Notes: a model not told the origin generated them from the sequence alone. 64,000 nucleotides of DNA from Hyphomicrobiales bacterium (GCA_965198845.1 CBDAQD010000001.1:20733-84732), one strand, 5' to 3'; numbered from the stretch's first letter, positions 1,822-16,875 are shown. Translations and numbers: made by a program.

Positions 1822-1943
1822 AGCTCCTCCGGCTTCGGCGAATTTGCTCTATCGGAAAGAAGCGTGGGCCGGCGCAGCCTCTGACGGCAGCATCGTTCGA
1901 GGGGGTTCGCGAGAACGATACCCCTGCGTGGACATCGCAACGG

Positions 1944-2766: not shown

Positions 2767-2915
2767 TGTCCTTTCCTCTCTCGCAGGACGACAGCAGCCG
2801 ACGCAGTCAACGCCGTAAGCTCGATTCAGCCCCTCTGTTTATTCGCTTACCTTTGGTCCGCCAGTCGCGTCTAGCGCCGAGTTGTCGATCTGCGGCATAC
2901 AGTCTCAACCGATAC

Positions 2916-2928
2916 TGCAATTATTGCA
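2916..2928. promoter_or_regulatory. Perfect palindrome TGCAAT-T-ATTGCA in the AT-rich region upstream of the FseA-like genes; candidate operator
   Basis: Seen directly in the sequence. It lies in a roughly 130-bp AT-rich stretch (2880-3010) between the DUF736 terminator and the fseA-like start. Any function is inferred only. Confidence 0.2.
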
Positions 2929-2995
2929 CATAAGTATCAATGACTTGTCATAAAGTGTGAAGATTTTCATGGAAATTCATACTGAATACCTATTA

Positions 2996-3037
2996 ATAAA
3001 AAACACGAAAAGCCCCCGCGCCGGAGGGCGCGGGGGC
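2996..3037 (-). terminator. Rho-independent terminator of the DUF736 gene
   Basis: An 11-bp GC stem (GCCCCCGCGCC / GGCGCGGGGGC, 3012-3022 and 3027-3037) with a GGAG loop, followed on the minus strand by a U-rich tract (plus-strand A-run 2996-3011). It sits 13 nt after the stop codon. Confidence 0.8.
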
Positions 3038-3049
3038 CGGTGATGGCCG

Positions 3050-3379
3050 CTAGCCGAGCGGGTTCCAGAGAATTGCCATGACATCGGGATCGTCCTGTCC
3101 GGCGGCCCGGCCGAGATTGGCGTAGATCTTGGCAGGGCCGAACTCCGGGGCGGAGAAGGTCAGCGAGACATAGGGGTTGCCGCTCGCCTTGCCGACCCGG
3201 TTCCAGCCGCCGCCGATCTCCACGCGATCCTCGGTGTAGACCCTGAAGTCCGGCTGTGCGTCGGTCTCCTTCGCCGGGTTGGGCAGGATGCGGATGCGTT
3301 TCTTGAGGCTCATCGTCGCGAGCGTGCCTTCGTATCCGCCGGTCTCGTTCTTCGTCACATATCCGAGTGCCTGTGCCAT
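3050..3379 (-). CDS. DUF736-domain protein (ICE backbone)
   Basis: Start at MAQALGYVTKNETGGYEGTLATMSLKKRIRILPNP (ATG 3379, AGGAGA upstream). 109 aa with the typical DUF736 pattern. The upstream 82 codons of the track ORF are Arg/Pro-rich junk. Confidence 0.85.
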   Translation of the reverse strand: MAQALGYVTKNETGGYEGTLATMSLKKRIRILPNPAKETDAQPDFRVYTEDRVEIGGGWNRVGKASGNPYVSLTFSAPEFGPAKIYANLGRAAGQDDPDVMAILWNPLG

Positions 3380-4084
3380 ATCATCGTCTCCTGTTGGCTT
3401 TAGCGGGCGCCCATCGCCCTGCTGATGCGGGACCGTCCATGGCGGGCGGGGGTCGCATGCACCGAGAGGCCGAAGCGAAGCGAAGGACCGGCGGGCGCAC
3501 TTTTTTGTTCCGCGAGGAAGCCGCGTAGCGGCGGGGAAAAAAGTGCAAAACGCCGGTTTCATGCGGCCGCTGTCCGCCATAGGTCCATCGAGCAGAAGCA
3601 GGCGAATGGGCGTCTCGGCTGCCATCGATCAGGAGACGCGATGGCACAGACGGCGCCGATGTTCGTGACGCAAGATGGCCGGTGAGGGGTCTCGCGCCCG
3701 ACGGCCTGGGGGCGTCAGCGCAGCCGCGTGCATGCCTGACTGTATAGAAGAAGAAACGAACGCCTGATGAGATAAGCGGTCCGCAAAGGGAGCGCGGAAC
3801 CGGACGGCACGAACCTATCGGCAAGCACCGGCACGATACCTCAGTGTCGGTGACCTTCTCCGCTCCCGAAGGTTACCGCGTGAACGGAACCGTCGCATCC
3901 GAAGGGATGCCGGACAGGACGATTCCGATGGCTTGGCGGTTCACCAAATCCCGCCTGAAAGTGCGTGACAATACCCCGTGCCATCCGGTTGTGGGTGGAC
4001 TTGCTGACAGCGATTGAGCGGCGGAAAGCGTTCGCGGCCCTCCCGTTCGGGTGAGACGGCCGCTCCCGCCGTCCGTCACCGGTT

Positions 4085-5806
4085 TCAGGAAACGAGCGAT
4101 TTGACACGGGATGTGTTGTCGCTCAGCCGTCCACCGCCATTCTTGGTGTAGGTTTTGAATGGAAACTCCATGTAGCGCGGTAGCCAGTCCTCGGCTTTCT
4201 TCCGGCTGTCGCCGGTGATGCAGTCGCGGATGATCTTCTTCTGGACCTTCGTCGTTGCCGTGACATTAGCGTCGGCGACGGCTTTGCCGCCGATATGGCG
4301 CAGCATGGCGTTGACCGCTCCCTTGTCACGGAGAAGGTCGAAGAAGGCGTCGTCCGCCTCCCAATAGTCGCGCATATCGACCTTGAGGCGGGTTCCCAGC
4401 GCTTCGACCACGGCGGTCCCGGACTCCAAGGTCTCGGCCATGACGATGGCCAGAACCCGAAACACGTCGTCGTCGGAGAGCTTCAAGAGCGCCCCAAATA
4501 GCTCGAGTACGCGATAATCATCGCCGTTCGAGTGCACGACGGAATGGCCGTGGGCGGGCAGTCCGAGAAGCTTCAAGACGTCCTCACGTTCCTCGGCCAG
4601 CGCCGTCTCGGCCTTCGATTGGGCGACGCTTTCCGCCGTCTTATCCTTGCGCGTCGTCTGCGGATCGGCCTCGGTGCGCCACAGCGCCGAGCCACCGATA
4701 GCGTGGGCCACCATCAGCCGGAGGGCAACGCCCGTATGCCTCAGCATTGCATGTCGCACGGCGGCGTGACGATGCAGTTCGATGTAGTTCTGCGCCGGGT
4801 TGGTCAGTTCGGGACGGATAGGTTTTCCGTCGGTGGCCGGATCGTCCTTCGACGCCTTGGCGCGGCGCTTGGCTTTCGCTTCCTTAGTCGTCAACCAACC
4901 CTCATGGGCCTCGACCTCGCCGCCGTGGGACACGGTGATATAGACGCGCCCGCCATCCTTTTTGAGCGTCTTTTCATGATCCCATGAATGAAAGCGCAAG
5001 CCGGGTTCGAGGATGTCGACCTCGGTCCAGCCGTTTTCCATGAGGGCATCGCGTTTGGCGGCAATGGCCGCATTCTGCAAGGTCCAGAACTGGTCTGTGT
5101 CCGCGAAATAGCCTTTCTCCCCAAACAGGTCCGTGACGGTCTGGCCCTTGTAGGCATCGAGCGGGAACAGCGCGACCTCGGTCGAAATCTGCTGACCGCC
5201 GAACAGCCATTGCTTCAACTGACAGCCGAGCGGCGCGTATTCGTCCGGGTCGCTGAACAGCTTGAGCCAGTCGCGCTGCTGGCGCTTGGTGGCCATGGTC
5301 AGATGGCGAACGGTCCGGGCGTCGATGTCCTCGTTGCGGTATGCCTTCCTGATCTTGGGCAGAAGCTCGCCCAAGGCGAGGCGGCGCTTCACCATCAACT
5401 CGGTGATGCCGAAGGTCGCGGCGATGTCGGCGACCGACGTCCCGGCCTTTCGCAGGCGCACGAAGGTCTCGTATTGCGTCATCTCGTCGGGGTCGAGCCG
5501 GGCAAGGTTTTCGATGAGCGACGCTTCGAGTGCCGCCGCGTCGTCGCCCGGCTCCATGATGGCGCAGGGCAGCGGCTCGACCGCGCCGCCATTGTCAACA
5601 ATAGACTTGGCCGCGAAGTAACGCCGCCGCCCGGCCACGATCTCGAAGCTCTCGCCATCGCCCTTGGGCCGCACCAAGAGCGGCACGAGGACGCCGCGCG
5701 CCTTCACGCTGGGAAGGATGTCGGAGACATCAGGCGCGGCTTTGGCATGGCGCATGTTGATGGCGGCGTCCTTCAGCTTGCCGAGTTCAATATGTTGGAG
5801 TAGCAT
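4085..5806 (-). CDS. ParB/Srx N-terminal-domain protein (large ICE ParB-like nuclease-domain protein)
   Basis: Start at MLLQHIELGKLKDAAINMRH (ATG 5806, AGGAG upstream). ParB box FEIVAGRRRYFAAK. 573 aa. The first 83 codons of the track ORF are rejected. Confidence 0.85.
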   Translation of the reverse strand: MLLQHIELGKLKDAAINMRHAKAAPDVSDILPSVKARGVLVPLLVRPKGDGESFEIVAGRRRYFAAKSIVDNGGAVEPLPCAIMEPGDDAAALEASLIENLARLDPDEMTQYETFVRLRKAGTSVADIAATFGITELMVKRRLALGELLPKIRKAYRNEDIDARTVRHLTMATKRQQRDWLKLFSDPDEYAPLGCQLKQWLFGGQQISTEVALFPLDAYKGQTVTDLFGEKGYFADTDQFWTLQNAAIAAKRDALMENGWTEVDILEPGLRFHSWDHEKTLKKDGGRVYITVSHGGEVEAHEGWLTTKEAKAKRRAKASKDDPATDGKPIRPELTNPAQNYIELHRHAAVRHAMLRHTGVALRLMVAHAIGGSALWRTEADPQTTRKDKTAESVAQSKAETALAEEREDVLKLLGLPAHGHSVVHSNGDDYRVLELFGALLKLSDDDVFRVLAIVMAETLESGTAVVEALGTRLKVDMRDYWEADDAFFDLLRDKGAVNAMLRHIGGKAVADANVTATTKVQKKIIRDCITGDSRKKAEDWLPRYMEFPFKTYTKNGGGRLSDNTSRVKSLVS

Positions 5807-6107
5807 GGGTTTGCTCCTGGGGTTGGGCTCCGGGTCCGCCGGAGCGATGAAGCGCCCAATCCGGGCGCGAAACTCTGGCCGTGCACACACAGTCCTCGCT
5901 TTCCCTGCCGATCTTGAGCATTGTCGGATCGGACAGAGCGAGCACGCCCTGGCGTTCGGCCTGATCGAAGAGCGTGGCGTATGGCTCGCGATCGATATGG
6001 AAGAGACGCATGTCCGGGCAGTGGCCCTTGAGCGTGCAGCCGGAGGTGCGCCCACCCGAAAACGAGACGACGGCGGGACCGTCGAGGCGGTATGGATAGC
6101 GGCTCAT
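5787..6107 (-). pseudogene. Short PP-loop (PAPS reductase-like) ORF, probably an internally deleted remnant
   Basis: MSRYPYRLDGPAVVSFSGGRTSG carries the SGGxxS PP-loop of PAPS-reductase-family proteins that pair with ParB-like genes. The ORF is only 106 aa, jumps straight to a Cys-containing tail (GCTLKGHC...EDCVC), and then runs into the parB-like start. Confidence 0.4.
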
Positions 6108-6217
6108 GGCTTCGCTCCCGCCCACGTTCCGGTGTCCTGAAAGGCGAGGATGAAGTCGGCTGCCTTCGAGGCTTGGCTCGCCGCGCGGAAGATGGCGCGA
6201 TTGTCCTCTCTCAGGAC
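6104..6217 (-). pseudogene. ardC: ardC fragment 3 of 3 (C-terminal 37 codons plus stop)
   Basis: My translation is VLREDNRAIFRAASQASKAADFILAFQDTGTWAGAKP*. It continues the ArdC C-terminus in frame from fragment 2. Its stop overlaps the ATG of the PP-loop ORF (ATGA). Confidence 0.8.
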
Positions 6218-6255
6218 TTCGATTTATCGCGAGGTGAAGATTATGCGGAGGAAGT
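6218..6255. repeat. RIT-1 left terminal inverted repeat (38 bp)
   Basis: ttcgatttatcgcgaggtgaagattatgcggaggaagt is the exact reverse complement of 10026-10063. It contains two direct sub-repeats, TTATCGCGAGG and TTATGCGGAGG. Confidence 0.9.
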
Positions 6256-6366
6256 TTTCATTGGCGCCGTTTTTTCAATGACTTGGACGGCGTTTCAGCC
6301 TCTCATACTGCGCATTATTTGAGATCGGTGGTTCCCTTGGTTGATCAACAAACCAAGGAGAACCAG

Positions 6367-7605
6367 ATGTCATCCTCGACCCCGGAAGCCATTATGAAGC
6401 TTCGCGAGACGCTGCGCACCAGGCGCTATAGTCCGACCGTTATTCACAATTACTGCCTTTATGCAGGTCAGTTTCTGTCCTGGCTGCAAGCGCGAGAAAT
6501 CGAGCTGTGCGAAGTCACACTGGACCTTGTGGCGCGCTATCTGGGCCACGCGGTGCGGCAATTTGAGAAGGATCGCGGGCGTTTGCCTGCTCCCAAATGG
6601 ACGGGGGTCCCGCGCTCGGGCATCCATGCGTTGCTACGCTCAGCTTTGGTCGATTGGCCGCCGGTGCCGCCCGCCGCAAGCGTGGCTGAACAGGTTTGTC
6701 GGGATATATGCTGTGTTTACGAGGACTGGCTGCGTGCTGAACGTGGTCTCGCGGAGCCTTCGATCAAGGCATTGATGTGGGAAGCACGTCACTTCTGTAA
6801 ATGGTATCTTCAGCAATACGAGCACGCGGACTTCGCCGCCCTGAACGTGTGCGACACCGATGCTTATATGGACGGCAGAGCTCCGGGGCTAACCCGCAAG
6901 TCGCTCAAGGATGTGGCCGAACGGCTGCGTGGATTCCTTCGGCATCTGCACCGTAGTGGCCTGCATGAAGACGATCTTTCGGGGCACGTGATTGCCCCGC
7001 TTCTCTACGCCTATGAAGGCATTCCCTCGATCCTGACCACTGAACAGATCGACGCTGTATTGGGCACGGCGGCGCAGGACAAGTCTTCGCTTGGCTTGCG
7101 CGATCATGCGATCCTTCAGCTTCTGGCCAATTACGGCCTTCGGTCTGGCGAGGTTGGGCGTTTGCAAATCGAAGATATCGATTGGCGCTCCGACACTTTG
7201 CGGGTCCACCGGTCCAAATCCCACACTGCGGCCGCGTTGCCCCTCGTGGAACCCGCCGGAGAAGCGATCTTGCGGTATTTGCGCGATGGCCGCCCGGAGA
7301 CGGATGCAAGGACCGTCTTTCTGAGAAGCCGGGCGCCATATCAGGCCATGAAAGCGGGCGGGCTTTATGGCGTTGTCAAACGCCGCCTCGAAAATGCCGG
7401 GATAGAACCGACCGGCAAGCGTGGACCACATATCTTCCGTCATGCTCGTGCCGTCAGCCTGCTGCGGGCGTCCACACCGCGCAAGATCATCGGAGATGTG
7501 CTCGGACACCGGTCGCCAGACTCGACCGTGCCCTATCTGAAGCTTGCGACAGAGGATTTGCGAGCCATTGCCATCGACCTTCCGGGGCGGGAGGTCAAAC
7601 CATGA
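6367..7605 (+). CDS. Tyrosine recombinase RitA (RIT-1)
   Basis: Start MSSSTPEAIMKLRETL with AAGGAG 6 nt upstream. Catalytic region GLRSGEV...HIFRHARAVSLL...LGHRSPDSTVPYLKL (R, HxxR, H, Y). Confidence 0.85.
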   Translation: MSSSTPEAIMKLRETLRTRRYSPTVIHNYCLYAGQFLSWLQAREIELCEVTLDLVARYLGHAVRQFEKDRGRLPAPKWTGVPRSGIHALLRSALVDWPPVPPAASVAEQVCRDICCVYEDWLRAERGLAEPSIKALMWEARHFCKWYLQQYEHADFAALNVCDTDAYMDGRAPGLTRKSLKDVAERLRGFLRHLHRSGLHEDDLSGHVIAPLLYAYEGIPSILTTEQIDAVLGTAAQDKSSLGLRDHAILQLLANYGLRSGEVGRLQIEDIDWRSDTLRVHRSKSHTAAALPLVEPAGEAILRYLRDGRPETDARTVFLRSRAPYQAMKAGGLYGVVKRRLENAGIEPTGKRGPHIFRHARAVSLLRASTPRKIIGDVLGHRSPDSTVPYLKLATEDLRAIAIDLPGREVKP

Positions 7606-8966
7606 TGCGTTGGCCTGAGGATGGAGAACAGATCATCAAGCAATATGTTGCGCAGCTCCCGTTGGGTTACGCGACGACACCGACTTATTACCGGCAAGCA
7701 CTGGACAGCTTCTGGCGGGCGGCTCTGCGATGTGGTGCAACAGACCGGCAAACACTTGAACACTGGCTAGGCGAGCGCTGTGAGGTCTGGGCGCGCTCAA
7801 CGGTGCAGCACCGTGCGCGGATCATTACGCGTTTCCTTGATGTCCTCGTTGACGACGGAAGGCTTGAGGGCAATCCCGTCTCGGACCTTCGAAACGCCCT
7901 GAATGCCTATAGTGACACGAGCATCATACGCGCCTTGATGTCACCTGACCCGGACAGGGCACTCGAAGATTTACGACGGCCCCAGCCCTATGGGAGTTCG
8001 TGGGGAAATCTCATGCGCACTCATGTTCACCGCATGCAGCGCATGGGGTACCGCTACGAGACACAGGATGTCATTTGCCGCCGGTTCGACCGCTTTGTTC
8101 AGGAACGGCCCGATCTTGATGGCCGTCCGCTAGAGACATTGCTTGCACAGTATCGCCAGATAAAGACGAACCCGAACCATCCGGCAGAATGCGAGAAGCT
8201 GGCCCGTGTCGTGAACAAAGCCTTGTGCCACGATGATCCGTCACGACCGGTGCGACCGCTTGATAAAGGGCCTGCGAAACAGGTCGAACGCACGTGGCGG
8301 CGCCCGTATATCTACAGCCATGAGGAGATCCAGAAGGTGCTGGCGATCGCCCGGACCTTTCCGTCTGCGCGTGCGCCGTCACGCCCGATAAATCTCTACA
8401 CAATGCTCGTTCTGGCCTATTGTGCCGGGCTGCGGGTCGGAGAGATAGCGCGGCTGAAACTCGGCGACGTTGACATGCAGGCGGGGACCATCGCGATTCG
8501 CGAGACGAAGTTCTTCAAGTCCCGCATCTTGCCCTTGTCCGATAGTGCGATGGACGCCATGCGCGCGCTTCTCAAAGCACGTCGAGACGCCAAGGTCTCA
8601 TGTGATCCTGAAGCTGGCCTGTTCTGGCACGAACAAAAGAGTGGGCATTACGGCCGGGCAGCGATTAGTTCGCATCTTGTCGCCATTCTGCGCATGGCGG
8701 GCCTGAAACCTGCCGAAGGCAAGACAGGGCCGCGCGTCCATGACCTGCGCCACACCTTTGTCGTTCACCGCATCTTGCAATGGTACCGGCAAGGCGTGAA
8801 CCCACAGGAAAAACTGCCCTATCTCGCAACCTATCTCGGCCATCGGGATATTAACTCCACGCTGGTCTACATCACCGTGACGCAGGAATTGCTGCATGAA
8901 GCAAACGAGCGGTTCCGGGCCTTCGCCTCTCCGGGCAACGCTGAACGAACGGAGGCGGCATCATGA
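7602..8966 (+). CDS. Tyrosine recombinase RitB (RIT-1)
   Basis: ATG 7602 overlaps the ritA stop (ATGA). Catalytic region GLRVGEIARL...HDLRHTFVVHRI...LGHRDINSTLVYITV. The track ORF start at 7182 lies inside ritA and is rejected. Confidence 0.85.
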   Translation: MMRWPEDGEQIIKQYVAQLPLGYATTPTYYRQALDSFWRAALRCGATDRQTLEHWLGERCEVWARSTVQHRARIITRFLDVLVDDGRLEGNPVSDLRNALNAYSDTSIIRALMSPDPDRALEDLRRPQPYGSSWGNLMRTHVHRMQRMGYRYETQDVICRRFDRFVQERPDLDGRPLETLLAQYRQIKTNPNHPAECEKLARVVNKALCHDDPSRPVRPLDKGPAKQVERTWRRPYIYSHEEIQKVLAIARTFPSARAPSRPINLYTMLVLAYCAGLRVGEIARLKLGDVDMQAGTIAIRETKFFKSRILPLSDSAMDAMRALLKARRDAKVSCDPEAGLFWHEQKSGHYGRAAISSHLVAILRMAGLKPAEGKTGPRVHDLRHTFVVHRILQWYRQGVNPQEKLPYLATYLGHRDINSTLVYITVTQELLHEANERFRAFASPGNAERTEAAS

Positions 8967-9961
8967 AAACCGATCCGCTCCCAGAATTGCTGCGCTTGTT
9001 CTTCACCGACTGGATGGTCCAGCAACGCAACGCGTCTGTTCACACGGTCAAGTCATATCGCGATACCTGGCGACTCTTTCTCCGATTTGTCGCGGAACGG
9101 CACGGCAAGCCTGTTTTCCGTCTCACCTTGAGCGAATTGACCGCCGCCGAAGTCGCTACTTTTCTCAAACACCTCGAGGAAGACCGCGGTGATACCATTG
9201 GTACGCGAAATTGCCGCCTGTCGGCCTTGCGCAGCTTCTTCGGCTTCGTGGCAACGCGCGACCCGGAACGCATGGCACAATGCGCACAGGTCCTTAACAT
9301 CCCAACAAAGAAGGCGCCGACCCGTGCCCCGGACTACCTTGAACCGGAAGAAGTACAGGCAATCCTTGCTCAACCGGATCGGTCAATGTTGATCGGTCAG
9401 AGGGACCATGCCCTGCTGTCGTTCCTCTACAACACAGGTGCCCGCATCCAAGAGGCGCTTAATCTATGCCCACAGGCCATCAGGTTCGATGCACCAGCTT
9501 GCGTGCGATTGCACGGAAAGGGCCGTAAGGAACGCATCAGCCCGCTCTGGCCAGAAACGGCTGCTCTGCTGAAATCACTGCTTGAGCGAACGCCAAGGCC
9601 TGACGATGCGCCCCTCTTCGTGAACCGCTACGGCAACCCGTTAAGCGCCTCGGGGGTGCGCTTCAAGCTGGCGGAGTATGTGAAAGCGGCGGCGGTGGAT
9701 GTGCCGACGCTAGCGAAAAAACATGTGACACCACACAGCTTCCGGCATGCAACAGCTGTGCATCTGGTTGCCGCGGGCGTGGACATCACCGTAATCCGAA
9801 GCTGGCTTGGCCATGTCAGCCTGGAGACGACAAACCACTACGCGCAGGCCAACCTGGAGACCAAACGCCGGGCATTGGAACAAATTGAGAGCCCAAAGAC
9901 TGGCAGCCCACCTTCATGGCGACGCGACCAAAGCGTGCTCGACTGGCTCGATACGCTCTGA
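8963..9961 (+). CDS. Tyrosine recombinase RitC (RIT-1)
   Basis: ATG overlaps the ritB stop (ATGA). 332 aa with GARIQEAL...HSFRHATAVHLV...LGHVSLETTNHYAQA. Clearly homologous to the third gene of RIT-2. Confidence 0.9.
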   Translation: MKTDPLPELLRLFFTDWMVQQRNASVHTVKSYRDTWRLFLRFVAERHGKPVFRLTLSELTAAEVATFLKHLEEDRGDTIGTRNCRLSALRSFFGFVATRDPERMAQCAQVLNIPTKKAPTRAPDYLEPEEVQAILAQPDRSMLIGQRDHALLSFLYNTGARIQEALNLCPQAIRFDAPACVRLHGKGRKERISPLWPETAALLKSLLERTPRPDDAPLFVNRYGNPLSASGVRFKLAEYVKAAAVDVPTLAKKHVTPHSFRHATAVHLVAAGVDITVIRSWLGHVSLETTNHYAQANLETKRRALEQIESPKTGSPPSWRRDQSVLDWLDTL

Positions 9962-10025
9962 TGCAAGCCTCAAATTATGCGGAGGAAAGAAGATCGAAAG
10001 GACAGAAAACTAAGGGCCGCGCCCG

Positions 10026-10089
10026 ACTTCCTCCGCATAATCTTCACCTCGCGATAAATCGAATAATGACGACCTCGTCATTATTCGAT
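10026..10089. repeat. RIT-1 right terminal inverted repeat (10026-10063) plus a 15-bp-stem perfect palindrome (10058-10089)
   Basis: atcgaataatgacga-cc-tcgtcattattcgat. The distal arm (10075-10089) is the missing outer tip of the left IR (see findings). Confidence 0.9.
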
Positions 10090-10257
10090 CCAATCGGCGA
10101 TATAGTCCGCATGGCGCACGGTTGGGGTAATGTTCTGCGCAGCGCAAACAAAGGCGCTCGCCATTTCTGCGACAAGTTCCTCGCGGGCGTAATCCTTGGT
10201 TCCCCTGCTGGTGGTCAGGTTCCGATCGAGGCGGGATTGATGGCCTGTCCAGTGGCC
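10084..10257 (-). pseudogene. ardC: ardC fragment 2 of 3 (58 codons)
   Basis: My translation is GHWTGHQSRLDRNLTTSRGTKDYAREELVAEMASAFVCAAQNITPTVRHADYIADWIE. This is the zincin HExxH-WTGH region and downstream helix of ArdC, in frame with fragments 1 and 3. Confidence 0.85.
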
Positions 10258-10324
10258 GTTATGCCGACATCGGCATAACGGCCATAATGCCGATATCCGG
10301 ATTATGCCGAGCTAGCCGCTGAGA
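10254..10324. repeat. RIT-2 ritC-side end: 14-bp-stem palindrome (10254-10283) plus terminal IR (10283-10324)
   Basis: ggccgttatgccga-ca-tcggcataacggcc, followed by cataatgccgatatccggattatgccgagctagccgctgaga. It contains four of the eight copies of the TWATGCCGA motif. Confidence 0.9.
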
Positions 10325-10366
10325 GTACGGCTAGCCCGACTTGGTCACTTCAAAATGTCGGCATAA

Positions 10367-11371
10367 TCAGAGGGCTTCCAGGAATTCCAACAAGCTGTCG
10401 TCCGCAATGTATCGACCCTTGGGCGTCTTGCGATTCATCCTCTTCGTCTTGGCCATCGCCTTTTCTTTAAGCTCGATATCGGCGTGGACGTATATTTGCG
10501 TTGTTTCCACCGACTCGTGACCCAGCCACAAAGCGATTACCGTTCGATCGACCCCATTCTGTAATAGGTGCATCGCTGCAGTGTGACGGAGCACATGCGG
10601 TGAGACCCGCTTCTTAGATAGTGTCGAGCACGTTTCTGATGCGATCAAAACGTGTTTCCGGACAATGCGTTCTAAAGCATCTCGACTTAGTGGACCTCCA
10701 CGGATGCTGACAAATAGCGGCTCTGATGGTCTACGACTACGCTCCTTCAGCCATGACTTAAGAGCCGTGACTGTGTCTCCACGAAGCGGTGTCGCACGTT
10801 CTTTTCGCCCCTTTCCAAGACATCGCACGACAGCACCGTGTCCAAGTTCCACGTCATTGATTTTGAGCGCCAACACTTCCGAGACCCTCAAACCCGTCTG
10901 GACCATCATCTGCAACAGAGTACGATCGCGGCGGCCGAACCAGGTCGACAGATCAGGCGCGTCGATCAGCGCTTCGGCCTCATCATAAGTCAGAAAGTCG
11001 ATTGCTCTTTTCACATACCGTTTCTGGGGCATCGATAAGATACGCTGGCAGTGATGAAGCAGTTGTGGTTCTTTGTCCGCGACATATTTGAAGAACGACC
11101 TGATGGCTGCGAGGCGCGTGTTTCGAGTTCTCGCGCTGCTACCCCTCGTGTCTTCGAGATGGATTAAAAACCGCCCGACCAGATCGGCGTCAATATGGTC
11201 TAAATGCAGCTTTGTTGGCGCTCTTCCGGTATCACTCGTCGCAAAGCGCAGGAGCATCCGGAAGGTGTCGCGATATCCAGCAATTGTGTTCGGACTGGCA
11301 TTCAGCTGACCAACGAGCCGCTCTGTAAAAAAGCGCTGTAAGTAGGGCGGAAGTGGATGCTGCTTGATCAT
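10367..11371 (-). CDS. Tyrosine recombinase RitC (RIT-2)
   Basis: 334 aa with GLRVSEVL...HVLRHTAAMHLL...LGHESVETTQIYVHA. Its ATG overlaps the ritB2 stop. Confidence 0.9.
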   Translation of the reverse strand: MIKQHPLPPYLQRFFTERLVGQLNASPNTIAGYRDTFRMLLRFATSDTGRAPTKLHLDHIDADLVGRFLIHLEDTRGSSARTRNTRLAAIRSFFKYVADKEPQLLHHCQRILSMPQKRYVKRAIDFLTYDEAEALIDAPDLSTWFGRRDRTLLQMMVQTGLRVSEVLALKINDVELGHGAVVRCLGKGRKERATPLRGDTVTALKSWLKERSRRPSEPLFVSIRGGPLSRDALERIVRKHVLIASETCSTLSKKRVSPHVLRHTAAMHLLQNGVDRTVIALWLGHESVETTQIYVHADIELKEKAMAKTKRMNRKTPKGRYIADDSLLEFLEAL

Positions 11372-12315
11372 CGCTGCCTCCGCTTCTTGAGCAGTGCCTC
11401 AGAACGCTTCGCCGCCAACTGCATCAGTTCGGGGACAGCTTCGATGTACCAGTATGTGTGCACCGGTTTTTTGTGGCCCAGAAAGGCACTTAGCTTGTAC
11501 ATTTCCTGATCGACATCGACGCCTGCCTTGTACCAACTGATGATCGTGTGCACGGCGAACGTATGTCGAAGATCATGGATACGAGGTCCAACACCATGCC
11601 TTTTGTAGCCCGCAGGATTGCGATGTCCGAGTCGGCGTCCGACTTGGGCAAATGTGTACCGCGCCCCACAGTCGCCTAGCGGCGCACCGGTGTGACGCAC
11701 AAAGATCGGACCACTATTGAGGCCGGTGATATGCCGTCTTAACTCCAGATACTGCCCCAGACGATCAACTGTGGATGGTGAGAGCGGCAAGCATCTCTCA
11801 CTCCCCGACTTGGACTTCAGGATTTCCAAGGTGCCCGCGGATAAATCGATATGATCTTTTTGAAGGCCGAGCGCTTCATTTATCCTCAAGCCGGTGACGG
11901 CGATCAGTCCAAAGAGCGTTGACGCCGTCAGGCCACGGAAGCCGTACTCAGAAGGCAAACGAGCCGCTTCTGCGACGATGTCTCGGATCTGTTGCTCGCT
12001 ATAAATGTAGGGTTTGGAGCGTTTAGGTTTTCCGATTGCAATATCGCGAGGCGGGATCTCCGACTTGCCGTCTATTCCACGCAACCATGTCGCAAACTTC
12101 CTGACCATGGATACGCGGGCGGACCAGGTGTTGGTGTCCGCAGCGCCATAGTCTCGCTTCCAATCTTTGAAGAGCGCGCTCGTTATATGCTCTGCATTTC
12201 GTTCATCTGCATATGCAGTGAACTTCTTCATGACGCGCTCGGTAAAACTAAGATCGTACCCGAGGGCACGACGTATCTCGAGATACTCGTATAGTCGTTC
12301 AGTGAGTGTTTTCAT
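11368..12315 (-). CDS. Tyrosine recombinase RitB (RIT-2)
   Basis: 315 aa with GLRINEAL...HDLRHTFAVHTI...LGHKKPVHTYWYIEA. Its ATG overlaps the ritA2 stop. Confidence 0.9.
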   Translation of the reverse strand: MKTLTERLYEYLEIRRALGYDLSFTERVMKKFTAYADERNAEHITSALFKDWKRDYGAADTNTWSARVSMVRKFATWLRGIDGKSEIPPRDIAIGKPKRSKPYIYSEQQIRDIVAEAARLPSEYGFRGLTASTLFGLIAVTGLRINEALGLQKDHIDLSAGTLEILKSKSGSERCLPLSPSTVDRLGQYLELRRHITGLNSGPIFVRHTGAPLGDCGARYTFAQVGRRLGHRNPAGYKRHGVGPRIHDLRHTFAVHTIISWYKAGVDVDQEMYKLSAFLGHKKPVHTYWYIEAVPELMQLAAKRSEALLKKRRQR

Positions 12316-13559
12316 CGCGCATCCTCCTGATCTGGCCAGGAAGGGGCGAGCGCTCGCAACGCGTCGACATCGTATTTGGCATAGATCGAAGTCGTCGACG
12401 GGGAACGATGTCTGAGGACATCGCTGATTTCCTCCAGAGAGGCGCCGTTCCGAAGCAGATCGGTCGCCAGACTGTGCCTTAAAATATGAGCGCCGACATA
12501 AGACTGCGGCGGGGAGATACCTGTCGCATTATAGGTTTTGCTCAAGATCCAGTTTACGATCTGGGAGTCGGCAAAGTTCTTGAACGGCGCTCTCGTCGAG
12601 ACGAAGAGATATCGAGAGGATCCACGTCGTTCATTCTTGATATAGTCGACGATCGCTGTTCCGACCTCATGGGGTAACGGCATTCGATCATGCAATCGAC
12701 CTTTACCACGGATCAGAACTTCACCCAGGCGCCAATCTAAGTCCTCCAATTTAATCGCGATGATTTCAGGTCCGCGCAGGCCCATCCGCGCCATCATCAT
12801 GATCATCGCATGGTCACGGCGTCCCGTTTTCGACGATAGCCGAGCCGCTTCGATGAGCCGGTTGATATCCTCCGGTGGCAAATACCTTGGGATTTTGCCG
12901 TTGCCGATGGTCCGTTGAGACGGAACTTGCTCAGCCAAGTTCTTGTCCGTGTGCTTCGCCCAATACAGGAAGCGAAAGAACGACCTGAGATGCGACGCGA
13001 TCGACTTGTCCTTAGCGATACGCGCGTTCTTACGCCTGCGCATCATATAGTCGGTAATGTCCTGAGCCTTTAGACCCTTGAGGTCGCCAAGACGGGGACC
13101 GTATTTGAACGTCAGAAATCCATGCGCATATCTCACGCAGCCATAAATCGTCGCCTCGGATAATCCTCTTTGTTCGCGAAGGTAGGCCTCATACTCGCGC
13201 ATAAGAACGGCGCGTTTAGACTTGTCGACCTTCTGGGGTCGTGCTGCAACCTCGCCTGCCTCGATCAGAAAATCCACGAAACGATTGATGCAATAAACGC
13301 CATAAGTGGCTTTTGAACCTTTATGCAGGCCGAGAACGGTCTGGATCAATCCATCGATCGCGCTTTCATCTAATTTCGACAAATAGATGCCACGCTTCAC
13401 GGCAAATTCTGCGAACCGTCGACAATGCGATCGATACGTGCCGACCGTTGCCGGTGTATAGCCTTGTCGATCAAGAAACACCGTGAACTCATCGATGCGT
13501 TGACTGTAGCGCTTTGCTTCCCGCTCTGGCAGCCGGTGGACGTTTCTATTTCTAGGCAT
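12312..13559 (-). CDS. Tyrosine recombinase RitA (RIT-2)
   Basis: 415 aa with GLRGPEII...HILRHSLATDLL...LRHRSPSTTSIYAKY. Confidence 0.9.
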   Translation of the reverse strand: MPRNRNVHRLPEREAKRYSQRIDEFTVFLDRQGYTPATVGTYRSHCRRFAEFAVKRGIYLSKLDESAIDGLIQTVLGLHKGSKATYGVYCINRFVDFLIEAGEVAARPQKVDKSKRAVLMREYEAYLREQRGLSEATIYGCVRYAHGFLTFKYGPRLGDLKGLKAQDITDYMMRRRKNARIAKDKSIASHLRSFFRFLYWAKHTDKNLAEQVPSQRTIGNGKIPRYLPPEDINRLIEAARLSSKTGRRDHAMIMMMARMGLRGPEIIAIKLEDLDWRLGEVLIRGKGRLHDRMPLPHEVGTAIVDYIKNERRGSSRYLFVSTRAPFKNFADSQIVNWILSKTYNATGISPPQSYVGAHILRHSLATDLLRNGASLEEISDVLRHRSPSTTSIYAKYDVDALRALAPSWPDQEDAR

Positions 13560-13665
13560 TTTTTGAACTCCTTCTCTTTGCTCAGAAGGAACGAATGCCT
13601 CATCGGTGCGTTGTCTGGGATTTTTATGCCGACTCTTTAGTGCGTCGGCCCCGCAGCTAACAGCG

Positions 13666-13708
13666 TCTCAGCGGCTAGCTCGGCATAATCCGGATATCGG
13701 CATTATGT
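13666..13708. repeat. RIT-2 ritA-side terminal inverted repeat
   Basis: tctcagcggctagctcggcataatccggatatcggcattatg(t) is the reverse complement of 10283-10324. Confidence 0.9.
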
Positions 13709-14373
13709 CCTAATTCGTGAAAACAGGTGCTGTAATAATTTATCTGGTCACGGAATGCGGGTTGCGGCGGCGCCTGAATAAAGTCTTCGCTCGGCACGAA
13801 AAAAGCCCTGTCGCCGCCGATACGAAAATCGGCGCCGGTGGCTTCAATAAGCTGTTCGGCGCGGGGGATGATTTCGCGCTCCGGCAAGGGCTGCACATTG
13901 GCTAAAAATTCATCGGGCAAGCCTTCACACTGGTCGGCGTTAAACACTGTGTAGCGTTTCAAAAAGCCGACGCGCTGCGGGTCGTCTCCTGTTTGCTGCG
14001 CTTTTTCTGCCTCGGCTTTGGGTATGAAGGTATCGGCGTAACAAATTGCAGTGCCGCGTTCGCCTTTTCTGACGCATCCGCCTAGCGACAAGGCTTGTTT
14101 GAAGGTTAGCCAGTGTTGGGTGGTTCTCGCGGTTTCGATAGCCGCTCCCCACAGCAACAAGATGTTGATGCCGGAATAGGTATTGCCGGTTGCCGCGTTT
14201 TTCGGAAGTCCCATCGGGGTCTTGATGTGGTCGCGTCCCCAAGGCTGAACCCAAGGCACTGCGCCAGCCTCAAGCTGCGCAATAATCTTGTCTGTCACGT
14301 CTTGATAAAGGTCGCGGCGCGGTGCGCTGCTGCGCTTGCCTCTTGCGCTTTGGTCGCGGTTCTTGGTGGCCAT
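13708..14373 (-). pseudogene. ardC: ardC fragment 1 of 3 (N-terminal 222 codons)
   Basis: MATKNRDQ...VPWVQPW...YSGINILLLW...YYSTCFHELG. This is the ArdC ssDNA-binding N-domain plus the start of the zincin motif. The track ORF then reads into the RIT-2 IR (..H NADIRIMPS*). AGGAGA lies upstream of the ATG. Confidence 0.85.
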
Positions 14374-14607
14374 GTCTCGTCTCCTGTTCTGCCCCCGTCA
14401 CCAGTTTCCCCCCGGCGGGAGGGGGTGGGCGGCAGGAACGCCGCGCAGGCGTGGGGCATCAGGGCCAAGGCAGCTTGCTGCCGGTGGGCAAGTTTCTTGG
14501 TAGGAGACCTTTGACGACCTATACGGATGAATACCCAAGAGGCTTGCGCATGGGCCGCCCCGCGCCAGCGTGGCTGACGCCCACACCCGAGCGCCTGGGG
14601 AAACCTC

Positions 14608-14629
14608 AAAAAAGCCGCGCGTCAGCGCG
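14608..14629 (-). terminator. Possible rho-independent terminator upstream of ardC
   Basis: On the minus strand, a 5-bp stem CGCGC / GCGCG (14625-14629 pairing with 14616-20) with a UGAC loop, then GC UUUUUU (plus-strand A-run 14608-14613). The stem is short. Confidence 0.35.
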
Positions 14630-14799
14630 TCTGCTGTTTCAATACGGTAAAGACGGCGCAAGCCGAGGCGCAGTCGAGGGAAGGATCATTACCGGATGGC
14701 CAAGACCCGATTCATCGGGGCTTGGGGAGGCGTGTAAAGCACGCCGAGTAGAGCCCGGTCGCGGCCTGCCGCGATGCGCTAGGTTTCCAAAAAGCGCAG

Positions 14800-16875
14800 C
14801 TAAGCTAATTTGGTGTAAGAAATCCCTTCCAGTCTAGCTTTTTCCAAAGCTATCAGCAGAACAGTGCATTGTTTTTCTGAGGGAACTTTCTGTGGTATGT
14901 TCTTGGCAATATTGAGGACACCAACTTCTTTTGGGGTGAAAATTCTTCTTTTGGAGCCTTCATCGAGTATGTAATTCCACTCAGCCGAAGTGATTTCAAA
15001 TACTTTCTTCTGAGCATCAATCCCATCATCAATTTTCTGAACATTCTTGGCCTGCCGCTGCCTTGCCTTGGTTTCTTCCTCGGTGATCGAGTCGCTCCAA
15101 AAACCATCCGAAATACCTGCAAGAAATTCATCCAGATCAGACATGATATTCGTCCAGCAAGCATCCTTCTTACACCACTCGGTGACGTTCGAAAATCCGG
15201 AAGGAGGCTCAGTGATATGATCATTTACAAACTTCGCAGCCGTTTCCAGAACAGATATAAATTCTGTTGAAAGCGTCTGCGTGTTCCAGATTTTCATAAA
15301 ATCAATATTTGACTCTTTTCTTCTACAGCTCTCTGCAATAGCCGCGATAGTGTATGCAACGATATTTGCGCGATACCCTCCATTGTACCATTCCTGTGCG
15401 GAAACCATGCGTTCAGTTGCTCTGAAAACAATGCCCCGTGCAATAGCGCGCTTGAAGTAGTGTTCATTGAAAGATTCAGACGACTTTGCCCACTCCTTTC
15501 CAATTCGTTTAGCGTATTGGGCAAAGTTCTTTTGGGCACCCAGATTCACCCACTTTGGATGCTCATCCCAGACATTCTCAAACTTGGCTAGGTCAGTTTT
15601 GCTGAACATCTGTGGTTTTGGGTTTTCAGCCTTGAATTTTTTCTTCTCGCCTGGCGTGAGTTTGGATTGAGCATCAGCATACTGACCGCGCGCTCGTTCA
15701 TAAAACCACTTCGTTTCACGTTGTGCACCTCTAACCGCAGGAGCCCAGAGCCGACGGGAAAAGTCCTCCATTCGAATATGGAATGGATGGTTTGAAAAGA
15801 AATCAGCTGCATTTACGCGATTTTGTGTATTCGCATATTCTGAAATCCGGGGAACGACGGTCTCGCTTTCTTCGCTATCAATTACAGAAAGTTTGAGTTG
15901 AACAAAAATTCCCTCAAGCGAAGCCTTATCCTTTCTTGCAGTATGGAAGAGTGAAGCTGTCGTTTGTCCGCCATTCACGATTTGAAGATCTGTTATCGAA
16001 ACGAGCTCCAATCCCTGGGGCGTAGAACGAGTCTCGACGCTTTGAGCGGTAGCGGTGATACCGTTGTTGTAGGCGAAGAACATTTCCGGCTCGGTAATTA
16101 TTGTGGACCGGATACCCTTATTTACTTTTCCTCGTGCCTGGAGAAAGCATCTGACGTTTTGTTCCAGAAGCCTTGCTCCGTATCTTCCGTATAATTCCGC
16201 CAGAACAGTTGCAGGCATTACGATAAGATATGATTGATAGGCGTGTGAGCCGAGATGTGCCGGAAGGCACGGAATACCGTATCCGAAGCGTTCATCAAAA
16301 TTTATATCCAATGGCTCCTTGTGGCCGCGTGCCGCTCGTTGTCTTTGCAACCGTGTAATATCCCAAATGTGGAATGAACATGGCACATTGCAAACTTCTG
16401 CATCTTCTACTTGTTGTAACCTTTCACTCAGAGCCCGCTCTGAGAATAGAATACAATTCAGCCTGACGATTGTTTTTCCACGATCAGCGATTTCCCTTGC
16501 GAGACCATACTCCGGTGAGGTTTCCTCCAATTCGCGGTGAAGATTCTTTACAAGACTTGCTTCGAAAAAATTTGACAACCGCCGGAAGGTTGCATCCACA
16601 TCTGTTCTTGTAAGCGAGTTGAGTTTTTCACGGCAATCAAAGTCCGCAATAAACAGATCGAGAACACCGTCATCGTTAAACCAGTATCCATCAACTCGCA
16701 TTCCTCGCGGTGCCCGATAGTGACAAAACTCAAAACCTTCTACAAATCCTGTATCGACAAGTTCATCCGCCAGTGCATTCATGAACTCGGCTAACTGAAA
16801 ATCGCTTCGAGCCTCAGCCGCCGCCAGCATCTCCTGTCGAAAATCATGGAAAAACTCGGAGACAGTCTCACTCAT
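14800..16875 (-). CDS. AIPR-family (abortive infection phage resistance) protein
   Basis: Start MSETVSEFFHDF (ATG 16875) overlaps the upstream stop by 8 nt. 691 aa. The central region FFAYNNGITATA...LQIVNGGQTTASLFH resembles the AIPR family core. Confidence 0.7.
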   Translation of the reverse strand: MSETVSEFFHDFRQEMLAAAEARSDFQLAEFMNALADELVDTGFVEGFEFCHYRAPRGMRVDGYWFNDDGVLDLFIADFDCREKLNSLTRTDVDATFRRLSNFFEASLVKNLHRELEETSPEYGLAREIADRGKTIVRLNCILFSERALSERLQQVEDAEVCNVPCSFHIWDITRLQRQRAARGHKEPLDINFDERFGYGIPCLPAHLGSHAYQSYLIVMPATVLAELYGRYGARLLEQNVRCFLQARGKVNKGIRSTIITEPEMFFAYNNGITATAQSVETRSTPQGLELVSITDLQIVNGGQTTASLFHTARKDKASLEGIFVQLKLSVIDSEESETVVPRISEYANTQNRVNAADFFSNHPFHIRMEDFSRRLWAPAVRGAQRETKWFYERARGQYADAQSKLTPGEKKKFKAENPKPQMFSKTDLAKFENVWDEHPKWVNLGAQKNFAQYAKRIGKEWAKSSESFNEHYFKRAIARGIVFRATERMVSAQEWYNGGYRANIVAYTIAAIAESCRRKESNIDFMKIWNTQTLSTEFISVLETAAKFVNDHITEPPSGFSNVTEWCKKDACWTNIMSDLDEFLAGISDGFWSDSITEEETKARQRQAKNVQKIDDGIDAQKKVFEITSAEWNYILDEGSKRRIFTPKEVGVLNIAKNIPQKVPSEKQCTVLLIALEKARLEGISYTKLA

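Follow-up and report, generated by a model that had tools for sequence, protein, structure and literature searches.

The anti-restriction gene ardC in the window analysed here, a 64,000-nucleotide stretch of DNA from a Hyphomicrobiales bacterium, is interrupted by two intact recombinase-in-trio (RIT) transposons, RIT-1 and RIT-2, with three tyrosine recombinase genes apiece, and it is very probable that each of the two lineages homes to a short conserved coding site of its own within ardC. The elements would then lie 171 bp apart because each lineage inserts at its own fixed codon; a single ardC gene that meets both lineages can therefore take up both insertions, the 171-bp middle piece being the inter-site distance. 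The target preference suggested in the original prediction is thus right, and stronger than proposed, and the selection for ardC loss offered beside it is not needed for explaining two hits.

Integration would be a conservative recombination by tyrosine recombinases with a 6-bp overlap, rather than cut-and-paste transposition with target duplication. The junction hexamers would be either the target's own or brought along from an earlier ardC target; the palindrome and one hexamer would land on a fixed side of the target, with the recombinase trio facing either direction. We infer a circular intermediate, the precise points of cleavage, and what RitA, RitB and RitC each do.

The interrupted gene and its two inserts

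The features of the region, in window coordinates, are as follows.

6104..6217 (-): ArdC C-terminal tail (piece 3), V-L-R-E-D-N-R-A-I-F ... stop; ardC-b-type lineage
6218..10089 (+): RIT-1 with bounding hexamers; inserted DNA 3866 bp (6218-10083 or 6224-10089); GC 0.581
6218-6223: RIT-1 far hexamer ttcgat
6218-6255: RIT-1 left inverted repeat; pairs with 10026-10063, 38/38 nt
6283..7605 (+): RIT-1 ritA; up to 440 aa from a TTG start, alignment to relatives beginning at residue 29
7602..8966 (+): RIT-1 ritB; 454 aa, ATGA overlap with ritA
8963..9961 (+): RIT-1 ritC; 332 aa, ATGA overlap with ritB
10026-10063: RIT-1 right inverted repeat; includes inner hexamer atcgaa (10058-10063)
10064-10083: RIT-1 20-bp palindrome, TAATGACGA-cc-TCGTCATTA
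10084-10089: RIT-1 outer hexamer ttcgat
10084..10254 (-): ardC piece 2; aa 223-279, H-W-T-G-H ... A-D-W-[I-E]; 83.9% nt identity to the intact ardC locus L090
10253..13711 (-): RIT-2 with bounding hexamers; inserted DNA 3453 bp (10255-13707 in the frame of the original prediction); GC 0.532
10253-10258: RIT-2 outer hexamer TGGCCG
10259-10278: RIT-2 20-bp palindrome, TTATGCCGA-CA-TCGGCATAA
10279-10284: RIT-2 inner hexamer CGGCCA
10280-10324 and 13666-13710: RIT-2 inverted-repeat arms (repeat finder, 44/45 nt)
10367..11371 (-): RIT-2 ritC; 334 aa, ATGA overlap with ritB
11368..12315 (-): RIT-2 ritB; 315 aa, ATGA overlap with ritA
12312..13559 (-): RIT-2 ritA; 415 aa, Phage_integrase (E 2e-28) and a SAM-like domain, HxLRH...Y motifs
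13706-13711: RIT-2 far hexamer TGTCCT, corresponding to the G-H codons of the target itself
13708..14373 (-): ardC piece 1; aa 1-222, ardC-a lineage; 91.7% nt identity to L090

The three minus-strand pieces translate exactly as originally predicted, and in alignment they are colinear with 319-aa intact ArdC proteins across both junctions. The zincin motif is indeed cut by the RIT-2 junction, between HELG and H, and joining pieces 1 and 2 restores HELGH. The joined pieces match the Pfam families ArdcN (2-123 of 123, E 7e-40) and MPTase-PolyVal (2-126 of 126, E 1e-51); the composite accordingly has both domains and the HEXXH motif of an ArdC protein, with a tail from another lineage. In piece 1 the ssDNA-binding domain (ArdcN) is complete, and the protease domain begins there and runs as far as H-E-L-G. 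Both insertion sites are located downstream of the ssDNA-binding domain, so that an N-terminal ArdC ORF of 232 aa survives, extending to 13675, within the RIT-2 inverted repeat. The final six nucleotides of piece 2 (10084-10089, ttcgat) are the RIT-1 outer hexamer and not native ardC. The 'I-E' residues at this junction were probably carried by the element rather than by ardC, to judge from sequence comparison, because W-L-x is present in all 12 closest homologues inspected, none of which has W-I-E, and W-L-T in the empty-site allele described below.

The inserts are RIT elements, as had been proposed: two trios of Phage_integrase ORFs lie between the ardC pieces, each trio on one strand, with the ritC ends of the two elements pointing at each other. 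Pfam Phage_integrase matches every one of the six ORFs (E 1e-16 to 2e-38), and HxxRH ... LGH/LRH ... Y motifs are found in the C-terminal 75 residues of 6/6 proteins (a motif-level check). The A, B and C subfamilies follow in order, the best matches among RIT-1, RIT-2 and an Acidiphilium trio being A to A, B to B and C to C; the RitA of RIT-2, for instance, is closest to those of RIT-1 and Acidiphilium. RitC of RIT-2 is 42% identical to that of RIT-1 and 59% to that of Acidiphilium, with cross-type identities of 25-32%. ATGA overlaps occur at 4/4 gene junctions (overlaps of 4-8 bp are a RIT criterion: PMC3414803), and both trios are bounded by terminal inverted repeats. Of the GC contents given originally (about 58% versus about 50%), that of RIT-1 holds at 58.1%, but that of RIT-2 is 53.2% and not about 50%. 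The description of RITs as a rare element class was overstated, as 356 plasmid records were matched in the RitC search.

The inverted repeats of the two elements, originally regarded as unrelated, are built to a common design, a 32-bp palindrome with the shared core ATGNCGA..TCGNCAT. The end architecture in both lineages is a 20-bp palindrome with 6-bp hexamers on either side. The outer and inner hexamers are identical in 7/18 cases and within one mismatch in 11/18. The hexamers adjacent to the palindrome encode Leu/Ile-X codons at the RIT-1 site (site 1) and end in CA, part of a His codon, at the RIT-2 site (site 2); the element-borne hexamer CGGCCA of RIT-2 equals the HEXXH-site hexamer of an ardC-b-type gene. 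The side on which the palindrome lies is constant at all palindrome-bearing ends examined at site 1 (15 ends, 14 loci) and at 6/6 at site 2: palindrome and one hexamer are on the N-terminal side of the target at site 1 and on the C-terminal side at site 2. The orientation of the trio differs between loci. No obvious similarity was found between the arms of the target and those of the element.

Attachment sites across ardC genes

RIT-1 relatives break about 30 other ardC genes, from plasmids and metagenomes, at the same codons, between W-L/I-x and V-L-R at residue ~279, within the final helices of the ArdC metalloprotease domain. The flanking peptides are of 12 distinct N-side and 16 distinct C-side types, corresponding to 12-16 distinct ArdC lineages; the loci were gathered by RitC similarity and thus do not amount to an unbiased sample, and among the metagenome loci a single element may in some cases have been sampled twice. 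RIT-2 relatives are located at the H of HEXXH, residue ~222, in at least five other ardC genes, one of them in Bacteroidota. HE-x-x and H-x-x-G are separated by a RIT-2-type element in Acidiphilium pACRY01, Pelagibacterium, Aliihoeflea and a Prolixibacteraceae genome (Bacteroidota), and a Tardiphaga locus has the H-x-x side only. One site-1 locus, L101, is a clean insertion with the 6-bp direct repeat CTGCGG.

Target choice tracks the RitC tree, the clustering of target labels being matched in 0/200 shuffles. RitC of RIT-1 belongs to an 18-row clade (support 100/99), 14/18 rows of which are in ardC site 1; among the exceptions, L002/L005 adjoins an IS5-type transposase gene and is without a left repeat, and the target assignment of L106 and L110 is unclear. 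RitC of RIT-2, on a long branch, falls in a clade with all six ardC site-2 insertions (support 95/92), and its two nearest relatives (L079 and L015) were not found in ardC. In a sister subclade the targets are genes for IS110 transposases or for a Strawberry-notch-type helicase, and the elements that target IS110 group together in a single subclade (support 99/91).

In S2, a sister metagenome sample, the RIT-1 site is unoccupied and followed by the native tail (W-LT-VLRNDKRA). Piece 2 is there joined directly to ...CTGACC GTG CTG CGC AAT GAC AAG..., the junction reading TGG CTG ACC GTG. The absence of RIT-1 from S2, where the empty site persists, supports the recency claimed for both insertions in the case of RIT-1. 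RIT-1 may move as a unit, to judge from the same comparison and from the exact boundaries that elements of its type have in many ardC lineages; neither an excision product nor a circle junction was seen. At the DNA level, an intact ardC occurs at L090 (92% identical) and at the ardC-b-type locus L092.

Chance insertion by low-specificity elements, retained because loss of ardC benefits the host or the conjugative element, is highly improbable. Both insertions disrupt the protease domain, and ardC is accessory, being required by R388 only for transfer into recipients bearing restriction systems (PMC7213743). Such insertions, however, would be expected to scatter along the gene, whereas about 30 share one codon boundary and at least 6 a second one, the identity of the interrupted proteins to the ArdC of the window going down to 31-40%; moreover, the ORF of the ssDNA-binding domain is left intact. 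Since a protease-dead ArdC mutant of R388 retains anti-restriction activity (PMC7213743), both sites are ill suited to a knock-out.

If the arrangements went back to one or two ancient insertions that diverged along with their host ardC genes, targeting would be unneeded. Several metagenome loci have near-identical flanks, and the N-side peptide EMNAAYLHNW is common to 7 junctions, so some loci are one insertion sampled repeatedly. As a general explanation this is nevertheless very unlikely, because the recombinases are 77-88% identical and the ArdC proteins only 31-41%, with no meaningful DNA similarity. The Rhodovulum plasmid pRGUI03 illustrates this contrast. The RIT in its ardC is 77.6% identical to RIT-1 in nucleotides (RitA/B/C 77/77/86%), while its host ArdC is only 34% identical to that of the window and the two ardC genes share a single 48-nt match; the junctions are homologous, WLR followed by VLRSD and WIE followed by VLRED. 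In addition, hexamers and trio orientation vary among loci, close relatives of occupied genes have empty sites, and two samples of one and the same organism differ in whether RIT-1 is present. The insertions are independent, and homing of each lineage to its own site remains the preferred reading.

The left junction of RIT-1

The original reading of one uninterrupted 316-aa ArdC was not upheld, as both protein and DNA comparisons assign piece 3 to another ardC lineage. Pieces 1 and 2 are 93-94% identical in amino acids to P0006 (93.9%) and P0005, the tails of which are only 75-78% identical to piece 3. Conversely, piece 3 is 100% identical to the P0088 tail over 31 aa, while the N-terminal part of P0088 is only 63% identical to pieces 1 and 2. 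In DNA, piece 3 is 92.8% identical to L092 and has no match to L090; it leads on to a ParB-like gene of b type (4085-6055). At its left junction, RIT-1 therefore either bridges two conjugative-element backbones or marks a place where the assembly was joined across a repeat. In the first case, RIT-1, or two RIT-1 copies, would most likely be the crossover point at which a 5.7-kb stretch from the backbone of a second conjugative element was joined to this one.

Read evidence consists of metagenome contigs, none of which spans a RIT; a search for long-read runs found none. A 220-nt short-read unitig (10063-10282, 0 mismatches, two runs) independently connects piece 2 to the ends of both RIT-1 and RIT-2, and piece 3 lies within a 5695-nt short-read contig (window 553-6247) with graph branch points at either end. 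In short contigs a circle junction is not distinguishable from the palindromic right end of RIT-1. Depths are noisy, the middle piece having 61 and the flanks 98 and 136.

The composite join is, on balance, likely to be real. The competing possibility, a mis-join across the 3.9-kb repeat in a mixed population, would make RIT-1 a simple insertion in ardC-a with its native tail, the b-type tail coming from another RIT-1 copy; it is somewhat unlikely. The source runs are metagenomes of 6-9 million contigs, and a 19-kb contig from the source sample places the native-tail flank on the RIT-1 left repeat with the target's hexamer GGTCAG, as a simple insertion predicts. The right flank of the window differs from the contigs by about 10 SNPs in 6 kb and has minority alleles (51 versus 90 at 13977), while the left flank is identical to the majority contig, which suggests that strain variants are mixed in the window. 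Against a mis-join, no alternative RIT-1 right flank was found in either source run, every right end entering piece 2; the depths of the two left flanks added together (98 + 67) approximate those of RIT-1 (187) and its right end (190), fitting two strain variants with a common right side. Different ardC copies are also joined via a RIT in unrelated loci, L094 (between two ArdC N-terminal parts) and L098 (between two C-terminal parts).

A broader picture, put forward tentatively, is that RITs not only home, as parasites, to genes of mobile elements but also serve as portable sites of recombination, the window combining double occupancy of ardC with a 5.7-kb backbone swap bordered by a RIT-1 end. 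Each lineage would occupy one conserved codon of a gene borne by a conjugative element, an insertion sequence or another element with a recombinase; the hexamers beside the palindrome would be a record of former targets, and copies in homologous genes of two elements could allow precise backbone exchange at the RIT.

Relation to known systems

Homing into genes of conjugative elements would account for the spread across phyla of RITs, which are without transfer genes. Truncated ArdC proteins, or ardC 'pseudogenes' beside three integrases, are to be read as RIT insertions; both flanks of a RIT should not be assumed to belong to one gene copy, and assemblies across 3.5-3.9-kb RIT repeats require long-read support. 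With two attachment sites in one gene, hexamers that behave as conservative recombination predicts and a natural empty allele, RIT integration becomes directly testable with cloned components.

RIT elements were described by Van Houdt et al. in 2009 and 2012 (PMC3414803) and are frequent on alphaproteobacterial plasmids and genomic islands. RIT-1 and RIT-2 resemble them in the co-directional A-B-C trio, 4-bp overlaps, inverted repeats of 38-45 nt and a size of about 3.5-3.9 kb. RIT movement and target specificity are marked as untested in Table 1 of a 2023 review (PMC10214605), and no RIT circle junction is reported in PMC5737581. The defined ardC site of each lineage, the palindrome-plus-hexamer module on a fixed side and the hexamers recording earlier targets set the present elements apart from these accounts, although this picture may in part already be described in Ricker et al. 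2013 (Plasmid 70:226).

Tn554 is likewise a tyrosine-recombinase transposon with strong site specificity, no target duplication and a 6-bp core carried between sites (PMC10214605). Tn554 (att554), however, has the recombinases TnpA and TnpB plus TnpC and no terminal inverted repeats, whereas in RITs there are three recombinases, and the ends are formed by long inverted repeats together with a palindrome. A Tn554-type identity was rejected on account of the three recombinases, the long inverted repeats and the lack of any further ORF inside either element. SE (strand-biased circularizing integrative elements) and GInt (three-integrase islands) also possess several tyrosine-recombinase-type genes that work jointly, are site-specific and transfer a 6-bp footprint (PMC10214605). 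They differ in requiring a fourth conserved protein (Tfp/GinC, Srap/GinD), in carrying cargo and in residing in Gamma- and Betaproteobacteria, while RIT-1 and RIT-2 are bare trios; with only three recombinase ORFs per 3.5-3.9-kb element, an SE/GInt identity was rejected. In Tn916 and CTnDOT, staggered cuts at a 6-7-bp non-homologous overlap, the coupling sequence, produce heteroduplex junctions, and the flanking hexamers thus come from the former site; in contrast to RITs, both are large and conjugative, have a single integrase plus Xis and are relaxed in their choice of target. The ArdC of R388 (PMC7213743) has the same two-domain architecture as that of the window, binding ssDNA through its N-terminal domain and ending in a gluzincin domain with HEXXH; here the protein's gene serves only as the target.

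Organisation of the two RIT elements and the interrupted ardC gene

ardC sequence lies on the minus strand in three pieces, between which two trios of Phage-integrase-type (tyrosine-recombinase) ORFs are located. The features and the layout of both elements are as follows.

6104-6217, minus strand: ardC piece 3
6218-6255 and 10026-10063: inverted repeats of RIT-1, 38/38 nt
6283-7605, 7602-8966 and 8963-9961, plus strand: RIT-1 recombinase ORFs
10084-10254, minus strand: ardC piece 2
10280-10324 and 13666-13710: inverted repeats of RIT-2, 44/45 nt
12312-13559, 11368-12315 and 10367-11371, minus strand: RIT-2 recombinase ORFs
13708-14373, minus strand: ardC piece 1
RIT-1 layout: flank - ttcgat - left repeat ... 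right repeat - atcgaa - TAATGACGA cc TCGTCATTA - ttcgat - flank
RIT-2 layout (window plus strand): flank - tggccg - TTATGCCGA ca TCGGCATAA - cggcca - repeat ... repeat - tgtcct - flank

The three minus-strand stretches translate precisely as in the original prediction. When joined, they cover the Pfam domains ArdcN (2-123/123) and MPTase-PolyVal (2-126/126) end to end and are colinear across both junctions with intact homologues, the best of which are 91-92% identical (319 aa). RIT-1 and RIT-2 are canonical RIT elements on each structural criterion tested: an ATGA overlap is found at every gene junction in both trios, and HxxR...Y motifs are retained in all six recombinases. The GC content is 58.1% for RIT-1, 53.2% for RIT-2 and 59-62% for the flanks. 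One end of each element carries a 20-bp palindrome that, together with two complementary bracketing hexamers, makes up a 32-bp perfect palindrome; the opposite end has a single hexamer. The inverted repeats had been described as unrelated, but this end design is common to both elements, including a core (ATGNCGA..TCGNCAT) present in both palindromes. The elements are distant relatives, with identities of 32% for RitA, 32% for RitB and 42% for RitC. A by-eye comparison of target arms with element arms gave no convincing similarity.

Both insertion sites are within the metalloprotease domain. The truncated ardC ORF (13675-14373, minus strand; 232 aa) terminates 11 codons inside the RIT-2 inverted repeat and retains the complete N-terminal ssDNA-binding domain; the fragment could be partly functional. 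The protease-dead mutant E229A of R388 ArdC retains anti-restriction activity (PMC7213743). Since the ssDNA-binding domain is kept and this mutant is active, the cost of insertion to the carrier element may be small. Directly upstream of ardC, in a low-GC block (0.46), is a gene for a 713-aa AIPR abortive-infection protein (14800-16941, minus strand; Pfam AIPR, E 5e-105, and AIPR_N), which is probably defence cargo.

Two ardC target sites and the RitC lineages

The RIT-1 clade inserts at site 1, ardC residue ~279 (W-L/I-x before the break and V-L-R after it; breaks in the peptides below are marked by a slash). The nearest plasmid relative of RIT-1, in Rhodovulum pRGUI03 (77.6% nt identity; RitA, RitB and RitC 77, 77 and 86%), is also located within ardC. 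That ArdC is 34% identical to the window's, with one 48-nt DNA match only, and the break falls at homologous codons (WIE/VLRED in the window, WLR/VLRSD in Rhodovulum). Plasmid loci of S. fredii, S. meliloti GR4 and B. elkanii have the site-1 break as well. About 30 loci from plasmids and the metagenome RitC scan possess an ArdC interrupted at this position; among them, the N-side peptide (..Y-[LI]-x-x-W) occurs in 12 distinct versions and the C-side peptide ([VAL]-L-[KR]-x-D..) in 16. The metagenome loci were gathered by a RitC protein scan in place of an exact inverted-repeat pattern scan, which gave no match in the metagenome contigs. Among the collected RIT/ardC loci (L-numbers), L101 is a clean site-1 insertion with a 6-bp direct repeat, CTGCGG. 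Apparent ArdC read-through beyond residue 279 (L094, L101, L118) and an ArdC starting immediately after ritC (L102-104) both proved to be alignment over-extension at ordinary site-1 junctions. In L112, the palindrome module adjoins an ArdC fragment and lies ~1 kb (2212-3300) away from where ritA would be expected to start; a second, intact ardC is situated 1.1 kb upstream.

Site 2, used by the RIT-2 clade, is the HEXX/H motif at residue ~222. A 57-nt match to the RIT-2 tip was found in Acidiphilium cryptum pACRY01, where the RIT (RitC 59% identical) is flanked by ...YSTALHELG / HATGHPSRLNR... and a 6-bp direct repeat, TGCCCC. A genome-wide RitC scan yielded additional RIT-2-type loci in Pelagibacterium, Aliihoeflea, Tardiphaga and a Prolixibacteraceae genome (Bacteroidota). 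HEXX/H is cut in Pelagibacterium, Aliihoeflea and Prolixibacteraceae; the Tardiphaga contig contains the H-x-x side only. The site-2 insertion in the Pelagibacterium genome (L039, 1669-7607) is 5.9 kb long, and its RIT therefore probably has ~2.4 kb of cargo. Another RIT-2 copy in the source sample adjoins a different ardC N-terminal part (...NYYRTCFHEL/CGGCCA).

In the RitC tree, two subclades around RIT-1 consist almost entirely of site-1 insertions (27 rows), and the elements of a sister subclade (support 99/91; L087, L088, L089) interrupt genes for IS110-family transposases directly after the motif YV(K/R)PFV(K/R); the reconstructed IS110 target was confirmed by Pfam. RIT-2 is on a long branch within a 13-row clade (95/92) holding 6/6 site-2 insertions. 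More distant relatives have other fixed targets, namely a Strawberry-notch-type helicase gene (L009) and an IS5-type transposase gene (L002/L005). Tyrosine-recombinase genes are targeted at the motifs ..LR/H.., LLGHxKL/E and IYAKV/D (L036, L054, L063, L066, L076/77, L079); for the GC-rich L036, L054, L077 and L079, automatic longest-ORF frames were wrong and short junction peptides were used instead. Because RitC subclades track these targets, homing to a single conserved coding motif, usually in another mobile element's gene, appears to be a property of the lineage. The interval from residue ~222 to ~279 corresponds to the 171-bp middle piece. The spacing of the two hits, originally called unexpected and read as a hint of target preference or of selection for ardC loss, is thus accounted for by two separate lineage-specific ardC sites.

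Several Acidobacteriota genomes (L010-L025, L063, L079) have two or three RITs a few kb apart, with up to six loci of the RitC scan on single chromosomes. No target site for RITs is given in PMC3414803, PMC5737581 or PMC10214605, Ricker et al. 2013 being outside this comparison. The contributions of this analysis are a second ardC site with a lineage of its own, the double occupancy of a single gene, the natural empty-site allele and the composite tail.

The composite ardC tail and the read evidence

The reading of the pieces as one uninterrupted ArdC did not survive protein and DNA comparison, in which piece 3 belongs to another lineage (ardC-b) than pieces 1 and 2 (ardC-a). Pieces 1 and 2 match the ardC-a proteins P0006 and P0005 at 93.9% and 93.1%, the tails of which match piece 3 at only 75-78%. 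Piece 3 and the tail of the ardC-b protein P0088 are 100% identical over 31 aa; the N-terminal part of P0088 matches pieces 1 and 2 at only 63%. At the DNA level, identity to the intact ardC-a locus L090 is 91.7% for piece 1 and 83.9% for piece 2, and neither piece 3 nor the left flank has a match there; identity to the ardC-b locus L092 is 92.8% for piece 3 and 71% for the ParB-like gene. W-L-x is present in 12/12 closest homologues inspected and W-I-E in 0/12.

The stretch occurs in four public runs, all of them metagenomes in contig form: X1 and X2 from the source sample, X3 and X4 from the sister sample S2; no Nanopore or PacBio run containing it was found. All junctions are present in the source sample, where a 220-nt unitig connects piece 2 with the palindromes of both elements with no mismatch. 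The RIT-1 left repeat has two flanks there, the window's (contig 553-6247, depth 98) and a 19-kb contig (depth 67) encoding at its end VLRNDKRA, the native ardC-a tail; source-sample contigs contain no second right flank of RIT-1. The two left-flank depths roughly add up to that of RIT-1 (187), which fits two strain variants with a common right side; as a linkage test, contig depths are noisy and partly contradictory (middle piece 61 vs flanks 98 and 136). An empty allele of site 1 is present in S2 (depth 2-4x only): RIT-1 is missing, the site reads TGG-CTGACC-GTG, and RIT-2 occupies the same site as in the window (99.3% identical). In the source sample, GGTCAG, the target's own hexamer, connects the native tail with the RIT-1 left repeat, and the palindrome side carries a non-native hexamer, ATCGAA. 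A megablast search of the plasmid collection with the reconstructed empty site gave no match.

The composite junction is probably real, in which case two conjugative-element backbones were joined through RIT-1. L094 and L098 are comparable: the L094 RIT (3235-7130) has a palindrome at both ends and lies between two head-to-head ArdC N-terminal parts, and the RIT of L098 has an ArdC C-terminal part on either side. Recombination between RITs inserted in two ardC genes would be expected to give such a reciprocal pair of products. An assembly artefact at this junction is the less likely alternative; contigs stop at RIT ends and none spans an element. The window's right flank (13977-19379) has ~10 SNPs in 6 kb relative to contigs of all three covering runs, with both alleles at position 13977 in X1 (51 vs 90), and the left flank has no differences from the contigs; the window may therefore mix strain variants.

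The 5.7-kb segment 553-6247 comprises the b-type ardC tail, a small ORF and the ParB-like gene. In the short-read assembly it forms a single contig that branches in the graph at either end; its depth is ~0.7 of that of its neighbours in both source runs, and it looks like a swapped backbone patch.

Palindrome side, hexamers and a possible mechanism

At site 1, the palindrome-plus-hexamer module abuts the ardC N-terminal part in all palindrome-bearing ends examined (15 ends, 14 loci); its neighbour at site 2 is the C-terminal part (6/6). The trio is oriented in both directions relative to the target at about equal frequency. The palindrome-adjacent hexamers, compared by sequence, look like target codons: those at site 1 are Leu/Ile-X codons (CTGCGC, TTGCGG, CTCAAG, TTGGAA, CTGGAG, CTCGAA, ATCGAA), and those at site 2 have a terminal CA, with which the second His codon begins. 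The element-borne CGGCCA of RIT-2 is identical to the HEXXH hexamer of an ardC-b-type gene. Three hexamer patterns occur: the outer hexamer equals the far one as a direct repeat (L101, L097, L003); the outer is the complement of the inner and the far one differs (Rhodovulum, L093, L113/114, window RIT-2); or all three are alike (window RIT-1).

In S2 contigs, position 10366 is connected to the reverse-complemented sequence from 13623 downwards (10366 / 13624 in the window), and the RIT-2 interior is therefore inverted in some copies; the breakpoints are at inverted ~9-10-mers, GTCGGCATAA / TTATGCCGAC. An S2 allele of RIT-2, at very low coverage, lacks exactly 26 nt (window 10268-10293), the combined length of the 20-bp palindrome and one hexamer, between the direct 9-mers TTATGCCGA and TAATGCCGA; it represents either a module lost by slippage or a natural palindrome-less form.

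Conservative recombination over a 6-bp overlap between non-identical partners would yield all three hexamer patterns. The heteroduplex junction would be resolvable either way, so that hexamers would travel from one target to the next. A putative circular intermediate (right repeat - hexamer - palindrome - hexamer - left repeat) would constitute one giant palindrome with two identical inverted core sites; such mirror-image sites would account for a palindrome side that is fixed and a trio orientation that is not. As the sole cause of free orientation they were rejected, since RIT-2 interior inversion is also seen in S2 contigs, and orientation may be set by either route, circular core sites or internal inversion. 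A 59-nt contig that suggested a circle junction at 6218 was discarded, being the palindromic right end in reverse complement; in short contigs, the junction of such a circle would read the same as this end. Hexamer carry-over between targets has also been described for Tn554 and for SE elements, in which a 6-bp hexamer is transferred as in the behaviour inferred here for RITs (PMC10214605).
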